From an uncultured virus (IMG/VR IMGVR_UViG_3300028797_000012) (taxonomy: Duplodnaviria > Heunggongvirae > Uroviricota > Caudoviricetes), in IMG/VR virus record IMGVR_UViG_3300028797_000012: a stretch of 20,000 nt of DNA. One strand, given 5' to 3'. Position numbers and translations under genes: made by a program. Below are positions 8,801 through 18,566 of this stretch, piece by piece. The notes under the pieces are model-generated. The model saw only the letters and a program-made list of their open reading frames with translations. It was not told the origin of the DNA and did no database searches. How positions within the stretch are numbered: the stretch's first letter is position 1; each line of letters begins with the position of its first letter.

Positions 8801-9073
8801 AGATCGCGCAAGAAGACCCCGTGCTGCCATTGCGCGGGGCACGACGGCTCGTGGAAGGCGATCTACAACCGCCGCCTACGCCGAATGTCCAACGTGGACA
8901 TGGAGAACGGTGTGTCCACCATCCCGGACGGCATGTACTACAGGCGGCTCAACTGCCCGTGGAACATCTCAGACCTCAAGGTCACGCACGTGACGTTCGC
9001 CGATTACTACGACCCTTGCAATGACGAGGCCAAGGAGCTCAACCTGTACCAGCGTTTTTACATCCGCAAGTGA
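8795..9073 (+). CDS. Small basic hypothetical protein (92 aa)
   Basis: GGAG SD and phage-like GC3 codon usage. MTRSRKKTP...NRRLRR...IPDG..YRR...WNISD...YIRK resembles, from memory, a recurrent family of uncharacterised phage small proteins (MSRSYKKxP...NRxVRR...WDIxD); not verified by search. Confidence 0.75.
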   Translation: MTRSRKKTPCCHCAGHDGSWKAIYNRRLRRMSNVDMENGVSTIPDGMYYRRLNCPWNISDLKVTHVTFADYYDPCNDEAKELNLYQRFYIRK

Positions 9074-9079
9074 TATAAT
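9071..9079 (+). promoter_or_regulatory. Consensus extended -10 promoter (TG-A-TATAAT)
   Basis: Perfect TGnTATAAT overlapping the stop codon of the 92-aa ORF, upstream of the structured RNA, HNH and tRNA unit. Confidence 0.65.
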
Positions 9080-9080
9080 T

Positions 9081-9145
9081 GGCACAGGACATCCTGCCCG
9101 ATGCCCTAACGGCCCCGCAGGGCCACGGCTCATAGCTTTGTGCCA
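9081..9145 (+). ncRNA. Putative cloverleaf-like four-way-junction RNA
   Basis: GGCACAG/TTGTGCC closing stem enclosing CATC/GATG, GGCCC/GGGCC and GGCT/AGCT hairpins. G-U pairs favour the + strand. No canonical T-loop or anticodon loop. Confidence 0.4.
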
Positions 9146-9218
9146 GAAAACGAAGCCCTCTTGGACGGCTGCGGAAACGTCCATGCGCATAACAAGTCTT
9201 CATTATATAAGGACAAAA

Positions 9219-9770
9219 ATGAGCCAGTTTAAGCATGGAACAGTTGTATACGATGGTGTTGACTATGCGCGAGGTATTATTAACGGTCGCGCTGTTTTAT
9301 ACCCGTTAGATAACGGGAAGATGAAAAGCAAGCAAAAGTTTATCTACGAGCATAGGCTTGTCTATGAAATTACCCATAACGAAAAACTAGAGAAGAACGA
9401 AATTGTCCATCACATTAATGGTGACAAAACAGATAATAGTCCAGAAAACTTAATTAAGATGGACGCAAGACAACATATCAGCATGCACTTGCAGGAGAGA
9501 AATGTAAGCGGCATGCATAAAACCGATCCGACTTACTGTATTGATTGCGGGAAAAAAATAACTTACATATCTAAAAGGTGTCCCGAATGTGCTCAAAAAG
9601 CAAGAATGATTCCAGGGCACCCCACAAAAGAACAGCTTGAAGAAATGTTACTCACTATGAATAACAGCCAAATTGCAAGACATTTTAATGTTTCTGATAC
9701 TGCGGTGAGGAAATGGCGAAAACGCTACGGATTGCCTCCTGCAAGAAAAGCAAAGCGGTTAGTTAGTTAA
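9219..9770 (+). CDS. Free-standing HNH (homing-type) endonuclease with Zn-ribbon and C-terminal HTH
   Basis: YEHRLV...IVHHINGDKTDNSPENL...H..MH (HNH_3-type); CIDC...CPEC; NSQIARHFNVSDTAVRKWRKRYG HTH. Markedly AT-rich compared with its flanks. SD AAGGA before ATG 9219, preferred over the ORF-track start at 9021. Confidence 0.9.
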   Translation: MSQFKHGTVVYDGVDYARGIINGRAVLYPLDNGKMKSKQKFIYEHRLVYEITHNEKLEKNEIVHHINGDKTDNSPENLIKMDARQHISMHLQERNVSGMHKTDPTYCIDCGKKITYISKRCPECAQKARMIPGHPTKEQLEEMLLTMNNSQIARHFNVSDTAVRKWRKRYGLPPARKAKRLVS

Positions 9771-9805: not shown

Positions 9806-9895
9806 GGAAGATTGGCAGAGTGGACGAATGCGGGCGGGTGCTAACCGTCTGGGCGCCGAAACGCCCCGGAGGTTCGAATCCTCCATCTTCCGCCA
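9806..9895 (+). tRNA. tRNA-Ser (anticodon GCT)
   Basis: Acceptor GGAAGAT/ATCTTCC, D-stem GCA/TGC, anticodon stem GGCGG/CCGTC with loop GTGCTAA (GCT at 9840-9842), long variable arm, T-arm GGAGG-TTCGAAT-CCTCC, discriminator G and encoded CCA. Confidence 0.95.
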
Positions 9896-9979: not shown

Positions 9980-10209
9980 GGTCACATCTGGTCACATCTC
10001 AGGGGTTCTCAGGGGGTCTCAGAGATACTAGATGTTGAAAAAAGTCGAGATGAACGGCGTTCTGACCTGGTGTTATATACAGCCATGCCAAACTCTTAAT
10101 CCCAAGGTCCGGGGTTCGAGTCCCCGCCGGTCCACCACTTCTGAACTGCGAAAACGTCCGAATGTCGGGCGTTTTTCTCATATACGCCCGGTCACATCCG
10201 GTCACATCT
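9980..10209. other. attP: attP: core = 3' half of tRNA-Lys(CTT), with arm-type integrase sites on both sides
   Basis: Core 10092-10137 ACTCTTAATCCCAAGGTCCGGGGTTCGAGTCCCCGCCGGTCCACCA (anticodon loop CTCTTAA, T-arm, CCA; no 5' half). GGTCACATC(T/C) direct-repeat pairs at 9980/9990 and 10190/10200. TCTCAG repeats with 10-bp period at 9997, 10007 and 10017. Directly downstream of a tyrosine integrase. Confidence 0.9.
10150..10176 (+). terminator. Probably bidirectional intrinsic terminator after the att core
   Basis: GAAAACGTCCGA-ATG-TCGGGCGTTTTT. It would terminate the reconstituted host tRNA-Lys after integration, and integrase transcription on the other strand. Confidence 0.7.
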
Positions 10210-11308
10210 CAGAGGGCTTCACGGCGTCTCGGAGCACGACGCGCTCAGACACGGCGTCGTCGAGGGCCCTTGCGTTGGCGAGGTGCGCGGGCGCGTTCGC
10301 CGCGAAGTAGTGGTTGTAGTCCACTTGCAGGTTGGTGTGCCCGAGCGACTTCGATATGAGCGAGTCGGACGCGCCGATGCCCTGCATGATGGTGGCGTAG
10401 CTGTTGCGCAGGTTCTTCATGGGCACGTACTTGGCGTCCTTGCCCTGCATCAGCTTGCGGTACTCGCGGGACACGCGGTCGGGGCGCGTGCGGTTGCCGT
10501 TGGAGTCCGGGCAGAGCGGCCCTACGCCGGAGAGTTCGAGCATGCGGCCCGCTATGCTCCCGCCGAGGAACACCGTCCGCGTGGACTCCGCGGTCTTCGT
10601 CGGGCCGTCCACAAGCTTGCCGCGCACCTCCGTGAGCGTCTTGTCGACGCGGATCGAGCACATGCCGACGCCGAACTCGAAGTCCTCCCAGAACAGCGCG
10701 CACGCCTCCTCGCGGCGCAGGCCGCCGAACAGCATGACGAGCAGCACGGGCTCCCACTTCGACCCGCGCACGGCGTCGAGCCACGCGGGAACGTCGTCGA
10801 GCAGCAGCACGTCGGGCTGGTACGCGTTCATGCGCTTGAGGCGGATGCGGCGCGTCATCGGGTTGTCCTCGACCAGCTCGTCGCGGTACGCCTCGTTGTA
10901 CATCTGGCGCAGGAGCTTGTAGGCGTTGCGCTGGGCGCCGGGCTTCTCTATGGAGAGCAGCCCGTGCTCGACGTCGCGGGCCTTGAGCTCTGACATCTTC
11001 CTGTCGCCGAACAGCGGCTCGACCAGCCCGTTCCACGCGTACCTGTAGCTCGAAGCGGTGGACTCGGCGAGCGACGACAGCGTCGGCTCGTAGAACACCT
11101 TCCAGTACTCGCCGAGCGTTAGCTCGCACCCGTCGAGCTTGCCCTCGTCGAGCTTCATCTTAGCCAGGACGGCTTCGGCCTCAGAACGAGTTCCGCGCAC
11201 CCTCTTGACCTTGCGGGTACGGCCCCCGTCCTGTTTGGACTTGCCCTCTACGCTCACGCGGTAGTAATCCTTCCCGAGCCGCTGTATCGAGCCAATGGCT
11301 GACCTCAT
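10202..11308 (-). CDS. int: Tyrosine recombinase (phage integrase)
   Basis: N-terminal arm-binding region (GSIQRLGKDYYRVSV), GLRREEACALFWEDF (catalytic R), PTKT (K), KNLRNSYAT (variant of HxLRH), LGHTN...YNHY (H, catalytic Y). SD AAAGGAGG; adjacent to attP. Confidence 0.95.
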   Translation of the reverse strand: MRSAIGSIQRLGKDYYRVSVEGKSKQDGGRTRKVKRVRGTRSEAEAVLAKMKLDEGKLDGCELTLGEYWKVFYEPTLSSLAESTASSYRYAWNGLVEPLFGDRKMSELKARDVEHGLLSIEKPGAQRNAYKLLRQMYNEAYRDELVEDNPMTRRIRLKRMNAYQPDVLLLDDVPAWLDAVRGSKWEPVLLVMLFGGLRREEACALFWEDFEFGVGMCSIRVDKTLTEVRGKLVDGPTKTAESTRTVFLGGSIAGRMLELSGVGPLCPDSNGNRTRPDRVSREYRKLMQGKDAKYVPMKNLRNSYATIMQGIGASDSLISKSLGHTNLQVDYNHYFAANAPAHLANARALDDAVSERVVLRDAVKPSEM

Positions 11309-11353
11309 GACAACCTCCTTTATATATGCCGCGCGTACGCGCGCCTTATCGCG

Positions 11354-11707
11354 CTACTGTGCCGACAGCGACTCGGCAACCACCATGATGGCGTGCTTGT
11401 TCTGGTCGGTGCAGCGACGGTACAGATCGACCAGCGCCTTCTCGTCGTCGGCGAGCGCCATCGCCGTGTCGTCGGCTGGCTGGCCCGTGCCTGGCGCCGG
11501 GCCGATGATGTCGGTCTTCGGGACGCTGAACACGTTGGCGAGCTTCTCGACGGTGCCCATCCTCGGCTTGATGCGCCCGGATTCGTACTGCGATATCGCG
11601 GAGCGCGTCAATCCGAGCCTTTCGGCAAGCTGCGACTGCGACAGCTCCGCCGCGACCCTCAGCCTGTATATGTTCTCGCCGATCTCGTTGTTGTTCTCTT
11701 CGTCCAT
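11354..11707 (-). CDS. XRE-family HTH repressor (cI-like), lacking an S24 peptidase domain
   Basis: IGENIYRLRVAAELSQSQLAERLGLTRSAISQYESGRIKP HTH; divergent from the cro-like gene and co-oriented with int. Confidence 0.9.
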   Translation of the reverse strand: MDEENNNEIGENIYRLRVAAELSQSQLAERLGLTRSAISQYESGRIKPRMGTVEKLANVFSVPKTDIIGPAPGTGQPADDTAMALADDEKALVDLYRRCTDQNKHAIMVVAESLSAQ

Positions 11708-11746
11708 TGTGTCCGCCTGACTGTGAAAAAACTTAACATACTAAAC

Positions 11747-11775
11747 ATTTTAGTGATTTTAACTTGACAGCACAA
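11747..11775 (-). promoter_or_regulatory. Candidate repressor promoter (PRM-like)
   Basis: Minus strand TTGTGC - 17 nt - TAAAAT, overlapping the divergent lytic promoter. Confidence 0.45.
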
Positions 11776-11795
11776 GGGAGTAAGTTATACTAAAC
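11764..11795 (+). promoter_or_regulatory. Early lytic promoter (PR-like) with overlapping operator
   Basis: TTGACA (11764-11769) - 16 nt - TATACT (11786-11791). The quasi-palindrome GTAAGT-TAT-ACTAAA(C) covers the -10. Confidence 0.75.
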
Positions 11796-11818
11796 ACAGC
11801 AACTTGAAAGGGATGTAA

Positions 11819-12016
11819 ATGCAAACATTAAAAGAGGCACGCGAGGCCCGCGGCATCAAGCAGAAGGCCGTCGCAAACGCACTACAAGTCTCACGTCAGA
11901 CCTATTCAAACTACGAAAAGAACCCAGACACCATGCCGGTGTTCCGCGCCAAGGCTGCATGCAGCTTCATCGGGTGCGATATCAACGAAATTTTTTTCAG
12001 CTCAGGGGTAAGTTAA
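11819..12016 (+). CDS. Cro-like XRE HTH regulator
   Basis: LKEAREARGIKQKAVANALQVSRQTYSNYEKNP...CDINEIFF; 65 aa; SD GAAAGGGA; divergent from the repressor. Confidence 0.9.
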   Translation: MQTLKEAREARGIKQKAVANALQVSRQTYSNYEKNPDTMPVFRAKAACSFIGCDINEIFFSSGVS

Positions 12017-12022
12017 ACTAAC
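12008..12022. promoter_or_regulatory. Second operator-like quasi-palindrome over the cro stop codon
   Basis: GTAAGT-TAA-ACTAAC, 13/15 identical to the copy at 11780-11794. Confidence 0.6.
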
Positions 12023-12029
12023 CATTTCC

Positions 12030-12429
12030 AATGGTCCTGGGCATGACCGAGCGATAAACCGCCCCATCCTTCCTAACGCGCCCGCTGCTTCTCTCACCCC
12101 TCTCTTGGCAGCGGGCGCTATCGGGGAGCCATGAGAACTCGGCTGGCCCTCCGATAGCGCCCTAGCGGTGCAGAACCTTGAAAACGCCGTGGTCGCCACC
12201 ATCCGACCATCCCAAATAAACATTAGGTGGACATGGCTATGCGTAGCACTGGCTTGAAAACGATGGCACCCGGCCGATTGGGCGCACGATTGCGCGTGAC
12301 CACCTCACTCCTTTCCACGCGTGCCGACCCTCGGTCTGGGGATGCGCTTTCTTACGCACGCTTCTTCACGCCTCCTACGGACGGGCAAGGGCGGCGGCTG
12401 CGCCCAGCCGGACGGGTGCCAAGTCAAGC
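12030..12429 (+). ncRNA. Structured non-coding leader / putative sRNA cluster with boxA-like motifs and anti-SD loops
   Basis: No convincing CDS. Stems at 12078-12088/12108-12118, 12113-12124/12151-12162, 12264-12286/12399-12421 and 12292-12298/12316-12322. CTTGAAAAC at 12177 and 12253. Pyrimidine-rich loops. Confidence 0.65.
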
Positions 12430-12443
12430 GAAAGGGGGTCCAT

Positions 12444-12653
12444 GTGTTTTGGACTACAGTGCCCGAACTCGCAAGGGAAGGGCATATAAGCGTCGACCGG
12501 CTCTACGAGCTGGCACGGCGCGAGGAAGACCCACTGCCGTTGCGGTTCGTGGGGGAGGGCGCCCGCTACGGGCAGGTCCTCTGCTCCGAGATGGCCGAGT
12601 GGGTCAAACGCAACAGCGTCCTATACCGCGATAGGAACGCGAAGAATGGCTAA
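12444..12653 (+). CDS. Small excisionase-like winged-HTH DNA-binding protein
   Basis: GTG start after SD AAAGGGGG. TTVPELAREGHISVDRLYELARREEDPLP...EMAEWV has a MerR/Xis-like pattern, and the position after cro fits Xis. Confidence 0.6.
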   Translation: MFWTTVPELAREGHISVDRLYELARREEDPLPLRFVGEGARYGQVLCSEMAEWVKRNSVLYRDRNAKNG

Positions 12654-12837
12654 GAAAGAGAAGACGCCGCGCATCGGCAACTGCAACGGCGTCAAGGAAC
12701 AATACGGCGTAAACCGCAAGAACGAGACGATTATATCACAAGCCGAAAACTGGGAGCGCGGTACGCGCTGGGCAGGGATCGCGCTCGTTCTGATGTTTGT
12801 CGCCATGAGCTTAGGGAGCGTGATTTTCGGATGGTAG
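12646..12837 (+). CDS. Small protein with C-terminal TM helix
   Basis: Overlaps both neighbours; C-terminal WAGIALVLMFVAMSLGSVIFGW. Confidence 0.65.
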   Translation: MAKKEKTPRIGNCNGVKEQYGVNRKNETIISQAENWERGTRWAGIALVLMFVAMSLGSVIFGW

Positions 12838-13091
12838 ACATTTTCTTCGACGAGGCGGAGAAGAAGCAGATCAAGGAGCTTAACCGCCGCATAACTTTCG
12901 ACCTCTCGACAATCGACATGACACCGCTGGCGAAGGTCGCCGCACTCGTCTCGGTGCTTGAGCAGGAGGTCACGGGCATCTCGATGTTCTACGACGTCGT
13001 CAAGAAAGGCGACGACGCCGTGAACGCGTCGATGGACAAGCTCATCGATAAGATTCTCGGAACATCCGAGGACAGTGGTCCAAATGCCTAA
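12831..13091 (+). CDS. Hypothetical acidic helical protein
   Basis: Tightly packed in the operon, GGAG upstream, typical codon usage. Confidence 0.65.
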   Translation: MVDIFFDEAEKKQIKELNRRITFDLSTIDMTPLAKVAALVSVLEQEVTGISMFYDVVKKGDDAVNASMDKLIDKILGTSEDSGPNA

Positions 13092-13461
13092 GTGGCGCGA
13101 CGGCAAGCCGCCGTCGAAGACGCTCGTTTACGAGGACGGCCGGCAGCGGCTCGCCCACGTCGGCCTGTCCGACAGGCTCGGGTGCTTCTGCTACATGCTC
13201 GACACCCAGAACGTCGAGCGCTTCACGTTCCACCCGATGAACGACAGGGTCGCCGACGCCGAGGAGACGGCGCGGCGCGAGGCTGCCAAGGCGCGCCTTG
13301 CGGCGCTCTACGAGCAGGACGAGCGCGACCGCGCCAACAAGCTCGTGACGCTTTGCGAGGAACTGCTCGAAGAGGGCGAGTTCCCGACGGGCTACAAGTC
13401 GTCGTACAAATCGCGGCTCGCGAGCTGCAAGTACGAGCGCCGAGCGCGGAAAGACGAGTAG
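13084..13461 (+). CDS. Hypothetical protein
   Basis: ATG 13084 overlaps the upstream stop (alternative GTG at 13075); strong GC3 bias. Confidence 0.7.
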   Translation: MPKWRDGKPPSKTLVYEDGRQRLAHVGLSDRLGCFCYMLDTQNVERFTFHPMNDRVADAEETARREAAKARLAALYEQDERDRANKLVTLCEELLEEGEFPTGYKSSYKSRLASCKYERRARKDE

Positions 13462-13483: not shown

Positions 13484-14170
13484 ATCTCCATACCAATTGT
13501 AATCCTTGGCAACTCCGGCACCGGCAAGTCGTACTCGATGCGCAACTTCGACGAGGGCGACGTGGCGGTGCTCAACACCCAGGGGAAAATCCTGCCTTTC
13601 TTCGACAGGCAGCTCGAAACTATCAACATACCGTCGCTCGCGATGCGGCTTGAGCGCGAAAACGGCTACAAGCCGCTGCGAGTCGACATAGTGCAAAGCT
13701 GGCTCGTCAACCACCACGAGAAACGTTCTGTCGTGGTGGACGATGCCGGCTTCCTCATTTCCGAGGCGTGGGTGCGCTGGTCCACTGGTCCAGAGGCGTA
13801 CGACAACAAGTACCAGGTATACACGGACGTAGCCGCCCGCATGTGGAACCTCTTCCAAACGGTCATCGAGGACGGCGACGTGAGCCGCATCGTGTACTTC
13901 ATGTTCCACGAGGACAGGCTCGACGACGGCACGATCGATATCAAGACCGTGGGCAAGCTGCTCAACGAGAAGCTGATGATCCGCGGCCTGGTAACCTGCA
14001 CTTTCCAGAGCGTCAAGGAAGGCGACCGCTACGGCTTCCACACGAACAACGCGAACCCGGCGAAATGTCCACCTGGGCTCTTCAACGACGAGTTCATCGA
14101 CAATGACCTCAAGATGGTGGACAGCCGCATCCGCGAGGCGTATCGGCTGAACGAGCTCGCGACAGGGTAG
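13484..14170 (+). CDS. Phage AAA_24/Sak4-like ATPase (recombination); probable ATC start
   Basis: The frame extends upstream of ATG 13538 through SIPIVILGNSGTGKS (Walker A). Walker B SVVVDD, YFMFHE, KTVGKLLNEK and AKCPPGLF...IDNDL..VD..IREAY are typical of this family. Confidence 0.85.
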   Translation: MSIPIVILGNSGTGKSYSMRNFDEGDVAVLNTQGKILPFFDRQLETINIPSLAMRLERENGYKPLRVDIVQSWLVNHHEKRSVVVDDAGFLISEAWVRWSTGPEAYDNKYQVYTDVAARMWNLFQTVIEDGDVSRIVYFMFHEDRLDDGTIDIKTVGKLLNEKLMIRGLVTCTFQSVKEGDRYGFHTNNANPAKCPPGLFNDEFIDNDLKMVDSRIREAYRLNELATG

Positions 14171-18360: not shown

Positions 18361-18566
18361 GCGTTACAGATCGTTACAGTGTTACAGATGAATTGGCAAA
18401 ATGTTACAGATGAACCGTAACTGTTACAGATGCTCTGTAACGGAGTTTTAGCAGATGGTAGCCTTGTGTTACAGCGTTACAGATGTGCGTAACATTCTTT
18501 TAAAAAGCAAGAAAATAATAATAAAGGGGGGTAAGTATACGCGCGTGAATCTGTAACACCGTAACA
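18361..18566. repeat. Iteron-type replication origin candidate
   Basis: GTTACAG direct copies at 18363, 18373, 18381, 18403, 18423, 18468 and 18476. Inverted CTGTAAC at 18435 and 18551, and GTAAC at 18417, 18489 and 18561. AT-rich tract near 18495-18525; directly after the primase-helicase. Confidence 0.8.

Follow-up and report, generated by a model that had tools for sequence, protein, structure and literature searches.

A conserved three-way-junction RNA between cro and an Xis-like gene of an uncultured tailed phage, a candidate leader of the early operon

The gap of 427 nt between a cro-like gene and an Xis-like gene of an uncultured tailed phage (IMG/VR record IMGVR_UViG_3300028797_000012) holds a non-coding module whose 158-nt core (about 12264-12421) is a structured RNA of the + strand, evolutionarily conserved among the three variants that were found. 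The whole stretch analysed, 20 kb long and hereafter called the window, is phage DNA, and coordinates refer to it unless a relative is named. The core folds as a three-way junction, occurs once per phage and lies beside the ribosome-binding site (RBS) of the next gene; it is a putative structured leader or processing RNA of the phage early operon, absent from Rfam 15 and well supported as a structure. A cis-acting leader resembling that of the phage lambda N gene is tentatively favoured as its role. A previous sequence-only reading of the gap had pictured an array of boxA-preceded cassettes giving small RNAs (sRNAs) with anti-Shine-Dalgarno (anti-SD) loops; that reading is partly supported, and the finding corrects its attractive but unsupported picture of an array.

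Structure and conservation of the junction core

The window serves as the reference phage, and its diverged relatives are L008, a 49-kb viral contig, and L010/L011, two viral contigs that carry one variant between them. Alignment of 12250-12446 with the L008 and L010 counterparts, followed by consensus folding, gives in all three variants a closing helix P1, a hairpin P2 and a composite arm P3, which together form the three-way junction.

12264..12286, + strand: P1 closing helix, 5' strand (22 pairs, 5 changed on both sides, 97% of cells paired)
12399..12421, + strand: P1, 3' strand (from the consensus fold and the inverted repeat)
12292..12322, + strand: P2, a 7-bp hairpin whose 17-nt loop (12299-12315) lacks G and is rich in pyrimidines (100% of cells paired, two double changes)
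12323..12395, + strand: P3 composite arm (helices 3-5), in which GGATGCG and CGCCTCC are invariant; it ends in a CU-rich loop of 22 nt
12252..12261, + strand: second CTTGAAAAC with GCTTGA, 5' arm of a P1 extension, this phage only (no counterpart in L008 or L010)
12424..12429, + strand: TCAAGC, 3' arm of the P1 extension, window-specific (no counterpart in L008 or L010)

The arms of P1, 23 nt each, 87% Watson-Crick complementary and 112 nt apart, rank first among the 15 inverted repeats of the whole window at spacings of up to 250 nt, and all of the motifs and stems on which the sequence-only reading was built, this long-range stem included, are present where it placed them. P1 keeps 22 consensus pairs in each of the three variants with one or two interruptions apiece, and its covariation falls in the outer half of the helix. 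The P2 stem pairs GCGCGTG (12292-12298) with CACGCGT (12316-12322) around the loop ACCACCTCACTCCTTTC; an invariant CGAUY forms the junction between P1 and P2, and 3 nt lead from P3 back to P1. P3 has 19 pairs, of which 15 are invariant and one is changed on both sides. Within it the invariant GGAUGCG pairs in the consensus with the invariant CGCCUCC, with a probability of 0.5-0.87 in two variants and less in L010; the distal part of P3 is uncertain, the minimum-energy fold of L010 being different there. The window-specific extension of P1, GCTTGA (12252-12257) with TCAAGC (12424-12429), has both of its arms present in the window.

Standard pairs fill 97.9% of the 143 cells of the 48 consensus pairs, against 91.6% in shuffled alignments, and 8 pairs are changed on both sides (five in P1, two in P2, one in P3) against 2.7 in shuffles; neither value is reached in any of 500 shuffles. 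Six controls in which partners were slid by 1-3 columns leave 38-42% of cells paired and no double changes. The gap as a whole (12017-12445) folds with a z-score of -2.51 on the + strand, where 2 of 100 shuffles do as well, and of -0.93 on the - strand, where 15 of 100 do. For the core alone the + strand z-scores are -3.40 (window, 12264-12421), -4.16 and -4.63, with 0 of 200 shuffles as good, and those of the - strand are -2.26, -1.84 and -4.04, the last in L010. Nine cells hold G·U pairs on the + strand, which would turn into A·C if read from the opposite strand. The core alignment contains gaps of 1, 6 and 10 nt, so that no reading frame is conserved there. It is these fold z-scores, G·U cells, compensatory changes and frame-breaking gaps together that identify the core as a structured RNA of the + strand. 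Its nucleotide identity among variants is 70-78%, compared with 49-74% in the flanking genes. The proposal of a structured non-coding element, co-directional with the early transcript, is in this way upheld: compensatory changes preserve the pairing of P1, P2 and part of P3.

It is very improbable that the signal belongs to something other than a + strand RNA, whether palindromes bound by a protein or an origin, acting at the level of DNA, a transcript of the - strand, or small open reading frames (ORFs) on that strand whose Shine-Dalgarno (SD) sequences would give the CU tracts. The - strand does fold well in the L010 core and in the 5' domains, but the arms stand 112 nt apart and the compensatory changes and G·U pairs are correct only on the + strand. 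Short - strand ORFs occur at 12223-12318, 12237-12359 and 12305-12427, but every frame is interrupted by alignment gaps of lengths not divisible by three. The 16-nt word GTAAGTTAWACTAAMC, found both at the early promoter and at the cro stop, which is the 5' edge of the module, would suit a DNA-level site. An origin-like repeat cluster lies elsewhere, at 18362-18566. A - strand terminator-like site at 12285-12266 would also suit such an account; by reading, its T-run is absent in L008 and L010, and the site was rejected as a candidate.

Copy number, relatives and catalogue searches

The array of cassettes that had been proposed was not found. A covariance model (R1) was built from the three cores and run on the window with filters off; it finds a single + strand match, of 172.8 bits, the second-best separate location reaching 13.1 bits. 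Four records of relatives contain the element, again with one + strand copy apiece, and a fifth record is a fragment without it.

Homologues were sought in viral, metagenome and genome collections with the Xis-like protein, both singly and as a 9-row alignment, and with an alignment of the downstream membrane protein. The Xis-like protein has nine homologue clusters among 5.8 billion proteins. The window version of the element recurs unchanged in one more viral contig and in one metagenome contig, and a third contig with a near-identical Xis-like gene begins inside that gene and lacks the RNA region. Four DNA patterns run against viral contigs matched 4, 45, 12 and 67 stretches, among which an nhmmer profile or R1 recognised the same three variants (window, L008, L010/L011); the remaining pattern matches were chance. 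The translation of one 115-aa gene call that runs upstream (P0003) matches the conserved core blocks by eye, which suggests a fourth variant. The sole match in the genome collections, 17 residues in a Phycisphaerae metagenome-assembled genome, was treated as chance, and blastn against cultured phages gave no similar DNA. The element is rare, three variants having been found.

No catalogued family lies at the element in Rfam 15 at gathering thresholds, at which only tRNA-Ser (9806-9892) passes in the whole window. Relaxing the threshold to E <= 10 over 11900-12600 adds only mir-1822, ar7 and MIR856, at 11-18 bits against thresholds of 60-297, and a search of L010 and L012 at E <= 1 gives a tRNA elsewhere in L012 and two hits far below threshold, to one microRNA and one snoRNA family, none of them over the element. 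The families covered by these searches include tRNA-like RNAs, riboswitches and ribozymes as well as C4, DicF and 6C. ARAGORN calls a 'tRNA-???' with a two-base anticodon at 2433-2525 of L008, over the 3' half of the core and the RBS; the call is absent in the window and in L011 and is probably spurious. The sample numbers of the four contigs do not occur in six supplementary files of the catalogue of about 10,000 candidate viral structured RNAs from IMG/VR (PMC10690425), a search that did not extend to the alignment files, so that a prior listing is possible. In the literature, judged from titles and the starts of abstracts, no described equivalent was found.

The upstream domain and the boxA-like word

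The stretch of homology is longer than the core and runs from a conserved GTTAAAC to the RBS, a module of 430-520 nt in the three variants (12012-12443 in the window). Its parts outside the core are as follows.

12012..12018, + strand: GTTAAAC, conserved 5' edge of the non-coding module, invariant in 3/3 variants and overlapping the cro stop codon
12078..12118, + strand: hairpin A, 11-bp stem with a 19-nt CU-rich loop in this phage (100% complementary; related stem at the same position in L008 and L010)
12113..12162, + strand: hairpin B, long irregular stem (19-nt arms, 89% complementary)
12157..12171, + strand: hairpin C, 5 bp with a 5-nt loop, directly 5' of the boxA-like word; (((((.....))))) predicted in 3/3 variants
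12176..12185, + strand: boxA-like word CCTTGAAAAC, first copy (CCTTGACAAC in L008, CCTTGAAAGAC in L010)
12186..12251, + strand: variable middle region, including the stem after the boxA-like word, unconserved in sequence
12430..12438, + strand: RBS GAAAGGGGG of the Xis-like gene, 8 nt 3' of P1

The counterparts of hairpin A in L008 and L010 have, by reading, three G·U pairs in their stems; at the position of hairpin B both relatives have a long hairpin of different internal sequence; and the stem of hairpin C is GCGCC/GGUGC in the window and GACGC/GCGUC in the relatives. Neighbouring arms overlap, the 3' arm of A with the 5' arm of B and the 3' arm of B with the 5' arm of C, and they do so likewise in both relatives (12078-12171 in the window). 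As predicted pairings these would have the layout of mutually exclusive, attenuator-like structures, with no U-run after them. Among the variants the middle region is 33-46% identical and measures 78, 134 and 194 nt.

The module behaves as a genetic unit of its own, tied apparently to the start of the downstream operon and not to cro or to any one gene, since module and RBS persist despite two rearrangements of their neighbours. In L008 a tRNA-Arg(CCT) gene (953-1027) and an SPFH/band-7-like gene (1054-2022; PHROG 200 'lipoprotein', E 8e-47) lie between cro and the module, an insertion that looks like a moron; the module is taken to begin at GTTAAAC because in L008 that word follows the inserted SPFH-like gene, not cro. 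In L010 the gene after the module is an unrelated 53-aa ORF (1303-1461, - strand, ending RRWLIEL) in place of the 69-aa Xis-like gene, and the next gene, for a small membrane protein, is again homologous; the start codon looks like the site of a recombination joint. A purine-rich RBS is retained throughout (GAAAGGGGG in the window, GGAAAGGAGG and GGAAGGAGG in the relatives), 7-11 nt after P1.

Two exact copies of CTTGAAAAC occur in the window, at 12177-12185 and 12253-12261, both within a 10-nt direct repeat, CTTGAAAACG, 76 nt apart. With one mismatch allowed there are 5 matches against 3.3 expected, and since 42 of 200 shuffles reach 5 the count alone is not beyond chance; what is notable is the exact 10-nt repeat and the conservation in relatives. 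That conservation concerns the first copy, found in 3/3 variants 4-5 nt after hairpin C (as RNA, CCUUGAAAAC in the window, CCUUGACAAC in L008 and CCUUGAAAGAC in L010; consensus CCUUGAMAR). Of the two boxA sites said to precede stems the first (12177) therefore stands as a conserved feature, whereas the second (12253), together with GCTTGA/TCAAGC, is confined to the window. According to a 2026 paper (PMC13753749), the boxA-like consensus of Bacillus subtilis rrn operons, AUGAUCUUUGAAA, lies immediately downstream of a small hairpin and binds NusB, the E. coli boxA consensus is UGCUCUUUAACA, and boxA loads NusB:S10 and blocks Rho. The phage CCUUGAAA agrees by eye with CUUUGAAA, the core of AUGAUCUUUGAAA, at 7 of 8 positions. 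The likeness, which includes the same order of hairpin and then word, is suggestive but short. A promoter reading of the TTGAAA/TTGACA in the module was rejected, no -10 element being visible at 16-18 nt in any variant by eye.

A cis-acting leader of the early operon

The genes and signals on either side of the module have the arrangement of a phage early operon.

11764..11791, + strand: early-right promoter-like site TTGACA-16 nt-TATACT (11 of 12 consensus positions), which would drive cro and the element
11819..12016, + strand: cro-like helix-turn-helix (HTH) gene, 65 aa (Pfam HTH_3, E 1.2e-11)
12444..12653, + strand: Xis-like small HTH gene, 69 aa, GTG start (PHROG 66 'excisionase and transcriptional regulator', weak match, E 0.0043)

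The label 'Xis-like' seems fair but soft, given the weakness of the PHROG 66 match; the 69-aa protein has no Pfam match. One promoter-like site occurs in 11200-13200, 5' of cro, and no + strand terminator-like site occurs in the same interval, for which reason the element would be read through from the cro promoter. On this basis the module would form part of the early-right (cro) transcript of a temperate phage, where the boxA-like word may help RNA polymerase to cross a long untranslated stretch, guarding against premature termination, perhaps through Nus factors. The two-turn P1 duplex beside the RBS could serve as a processing site for a double-strand RNase of the RNase III type; a cut at that point would separate cro from the delayed-early message, whose 5' end, stability and translation it would set. 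In the leader of the lambda N gene a nut site is combined with a hairpin, sensitive to RNase III, next to the N RBS, and rrn processing stems have a similar anatomy. A cis-acting leader of this kind is favoured, as a possibility held with reserve, because a 22-bp duplex stands 7-11 nt from the SD, a boxA-like word is conserved and the presumed transcript is long, paired and untranslated. The duplex had been singled out as of RNase III type, and its length is in keeping with that: P1 keeps about 22 bp in the relatives, mostly continuous, where about 20-22 bp would be expected.

A number of points weigh against the leader interpretation. The covariation statistics are thin, with only three independent sequences, and 15 of the 19 P3 pairs never vary and are uninformative, giving no weight either way. 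The fold of the 5' domain is no worse on the - strand than on the + strand, and in part better. The likeness to boxA is short and was drawn with the B. subtilis and E. coli consensus only, and the analogy with the lambda N leader is one of position, not based on homology. The SD itself is predicted to be mostly free (mean unpaired probability 0.56-0.65), and a sequestering switch in which CGCCUCC would pair with the SD was rejected, as it costs 15-18 kcal/mol; plain thermodynamic masking of the SD is unlikely on both counts, and a translational effect would therefore need processing, a pseudoknot or a protein. Lastly, the pyrimidine-rich loops are unexplained by the leader model, which is the main reason that the trans-acting and decoy readings discussed below stay alive.

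A neighbouring account would place the control in elongation, at the position of lambda nutR/tR1: the element would be a nut- or put-like antitermination signal, or else a Rho-dependent terminator whose C-rich, rut-like loops delay the genes past cro. We regard this as rather unlikely. Its location after cro (or after the moron that follows cro) does match that of lambda nutR/tR1 and HK022 putR, but those phages have left and right sites and the present records a single copy each, and the part of the genome that was examined showed no evident N-like gene. A boxA-like word preceded by a hairpin in 3/3 variants would suit it, given the Rho-blocking activity of boxA described in PMC13753749; the best-conserved part is nevertheless the three-way junction, which has no nut or put counterpart, rather than that word. 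As for Rho, the 430-520-nt untranslated stretch would otherwise be exposed to it, C exceeds G throughout 11600-12400 (GC skew -0.09 to -0.12) and the loops are rich in pyrimidine-C steps, but the RNA is mostly tightly paired, which disfavours Rho loading, and 11200-13200 has no + strand terminator-like site downstream.

Pyrimidine-rich loops and ribosome-binding sites

The large loops of the core are G-poor in all three variants. P2 loops have a pyrimidine fraction of 0.82-0.88 and no G in 3/3 variants, and P3 terminal loops are 77-81% pyrimidine, falling to 60% in the L010 alternative fold. The L010 P2 loop, CUCAUCACCUCCUUUC, contains AUCACCUCCUUUC, equal to 13 nt of the Gram-positive 16S 3' tail; the window loop resembles an interrupted version of it, and the L008 loop is UCUUUACUCUG, without CCUCC. 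The 16S-tail-like loop that had been described is thus present in two of three variants and replaced in L008, the pyrimidine richness being common to all. The heptamer UCCUUUC occurs in one loop of each variant, P2 in two of them and P3 in L008.

These loops are the attraction of the proposal that the early transcript is matured in the manner of rRNA into one or more stable sRNAs, whose anti-SD-like loops would pair in trans and silence phage or host mRNAs, a role we consider doubtful. The long closing duplex could free a discrete RNA, and precedents include DicF, which is processed out of a prophage immunity-region operon, P1 C4, P4 CI and the C-rich-loop sRNAs of Gram-positive bacteria; but the single copy per phage record leaves no array, and the element has no promoter or terminator of its own in 11200-13200. 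The loops form duplexes of 7-9 bp with downstream SD sequences, but these are equalled by 27%, 67%, 52%, 63%, 7% and 12% of composition-matched shuffled loops, so the complementarity follows from composition. A generic anti-SD sequence, moreover, matches nearly every gene and confers no specificity, and the 16S-tail-like order is lost in L008. The CCTCCT at 12371-12376, which had been listed beside the loops, belongs to the invariant CGCCUCC and lies inside an invariant helix of the consensus fold. The proposed pairing with the integrase RBS fares no better: beyond the generic SD match, that between the window loop and AAAGGAGGUUGUCA in the integrase leader AAAGGAGGUUGUCAUG recurs in neither relative, whose integrase leaders AGGGGGAUUGUAUCAUG and GGGUGGAUUGUACCAUG (AGGGGGAUUGUAUC and GGGUGGAUUGUACC) are by eye not complementary to their own P2 loops.

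A further conjecture, for which we see little probability, is that the junction acts as a scaffold showing its G-free pyrimidine-rich loops in mimicry of the ribosomal anti-SD end, as an SD decoy or sponge in early infection or as a lure for a 16S-tail-recognising host factor or defence nuclease. If a mimic of the 16S tail were real, it would be a phage RNA of a new class, belonging neither with leaders nor with antisense RNAs.

Other features of the window

The remaining genes of the window are as follows.

Left part of the window: tail-fibre gene, GH25 endolysin, HNH endonuclease
9806-9895: tRNA-Ser(GCT)
10202-11308, - strand: tyrosine integrase
11354-11707, - strand: cI-like HTH_3 repressor gene, divergent from the cro-like gene
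13538-14170: Sak4-like annealing protein

The closest cultured relatives of the endolysin come from phages of Arthrobacter, Bifidobacterium, Curtobacterium and similar hosts, all at <60% identity; from these relatives and the phage GC content of ~60%, the host is probably a high-GC Gram-positive bacterium. The word GTAAGTTAWACTAAMC, which looks like an operator, occurs twice in the window, at 11780-11795 over the -10 of the early promoter and at 12008-12023 over the cro stop (two matches in 0 of 200 shuffles), and a palindrome, ACTAAACATTTTAGT, lies at about 11750-11764, near the promoter copy. The three sites resemble an operator set with an extra site 3' of cro, possibly for looping by the repressor. 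Direct and inverted repeats of GTTACAG(A/C) are clustered at 18362-18566 in a low-GC patch, a candidate iteron-type replication origin or other protein-binding array. The HNH endonuclease gene (9021-9770), which has a C-terminal HTH-like tail and a local GC of 0.38-0.47 against about 0.60, directly precedes tRNA-Ser(GCT) and the integrase and is possibly a recent insertion beside the attachment region.

Comparison with known systems

Phage genomes are tightly packed, and a non-coding stretch of 430-520 nt that bears compensatory mutations and heads the delayed-early genes is for that reason likely to be regulatory. Early controls of this sort, namely nut, put and the N leader, have been elucidated in lambda-type E. 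coli phages and are, to our knowledge, hardly known for temperate phages of high-GC Gram-positive gut bacteria. The 158-nt junction abutting an RBS, together with the boxA-like word, is a defined and testable RNA that offers a handle on early-gene timing. Were the boxA-like word to recruit Nus factors, this would be a phage of a Gram-positive host exploiting the Nus system of that host; such use of boxA and Nus is not known to have been described.

With the lambda N leader the module shares its place as an untranslated leader in an early operon controlled by the immunity switch, an upstream boxA-type word, and a duplex of about two turns that ends a few nt before the RBS of the first regulated gene. 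It differs in that there is no homology of sequence or structure, and where lambda has a simple hairpin the module has a three-way junction that carries two large loops rich in pyrimidines; neither boxB nor an N protein was identified here, and the element is on the cro side, not the N side. The rrn leader signal likewise consists of a small hairpin and then a short conserved word, followed by a long-range duplex as around 16S rRNA. Here, however, the word match is short, the second window copy is unconserved, and the duplex encloses a 112-nt junction and not an rRNA. DicF of the dicBF operon of prophage Qin, P1 C4 and P4 CI are of the same kind as non-coding RNAs within a prophage early or immunity transcript; those RNAs are released by processing and are complementary to ribosome-binding regions, whereas the present element has no Rfam match at gathering score and an SD complementarity at the level of composition-matched chance. 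The put RNAs of HK022 resemble it as cis-acting folded RNAs after an early promoter (putR after cro) for which no dedicated phage gene nearby is required; put consists of two hairpins of about 70 nt and is present in two copies, while the element described here takes up 430-520 nt, is built around a junction core and is present in one copy.

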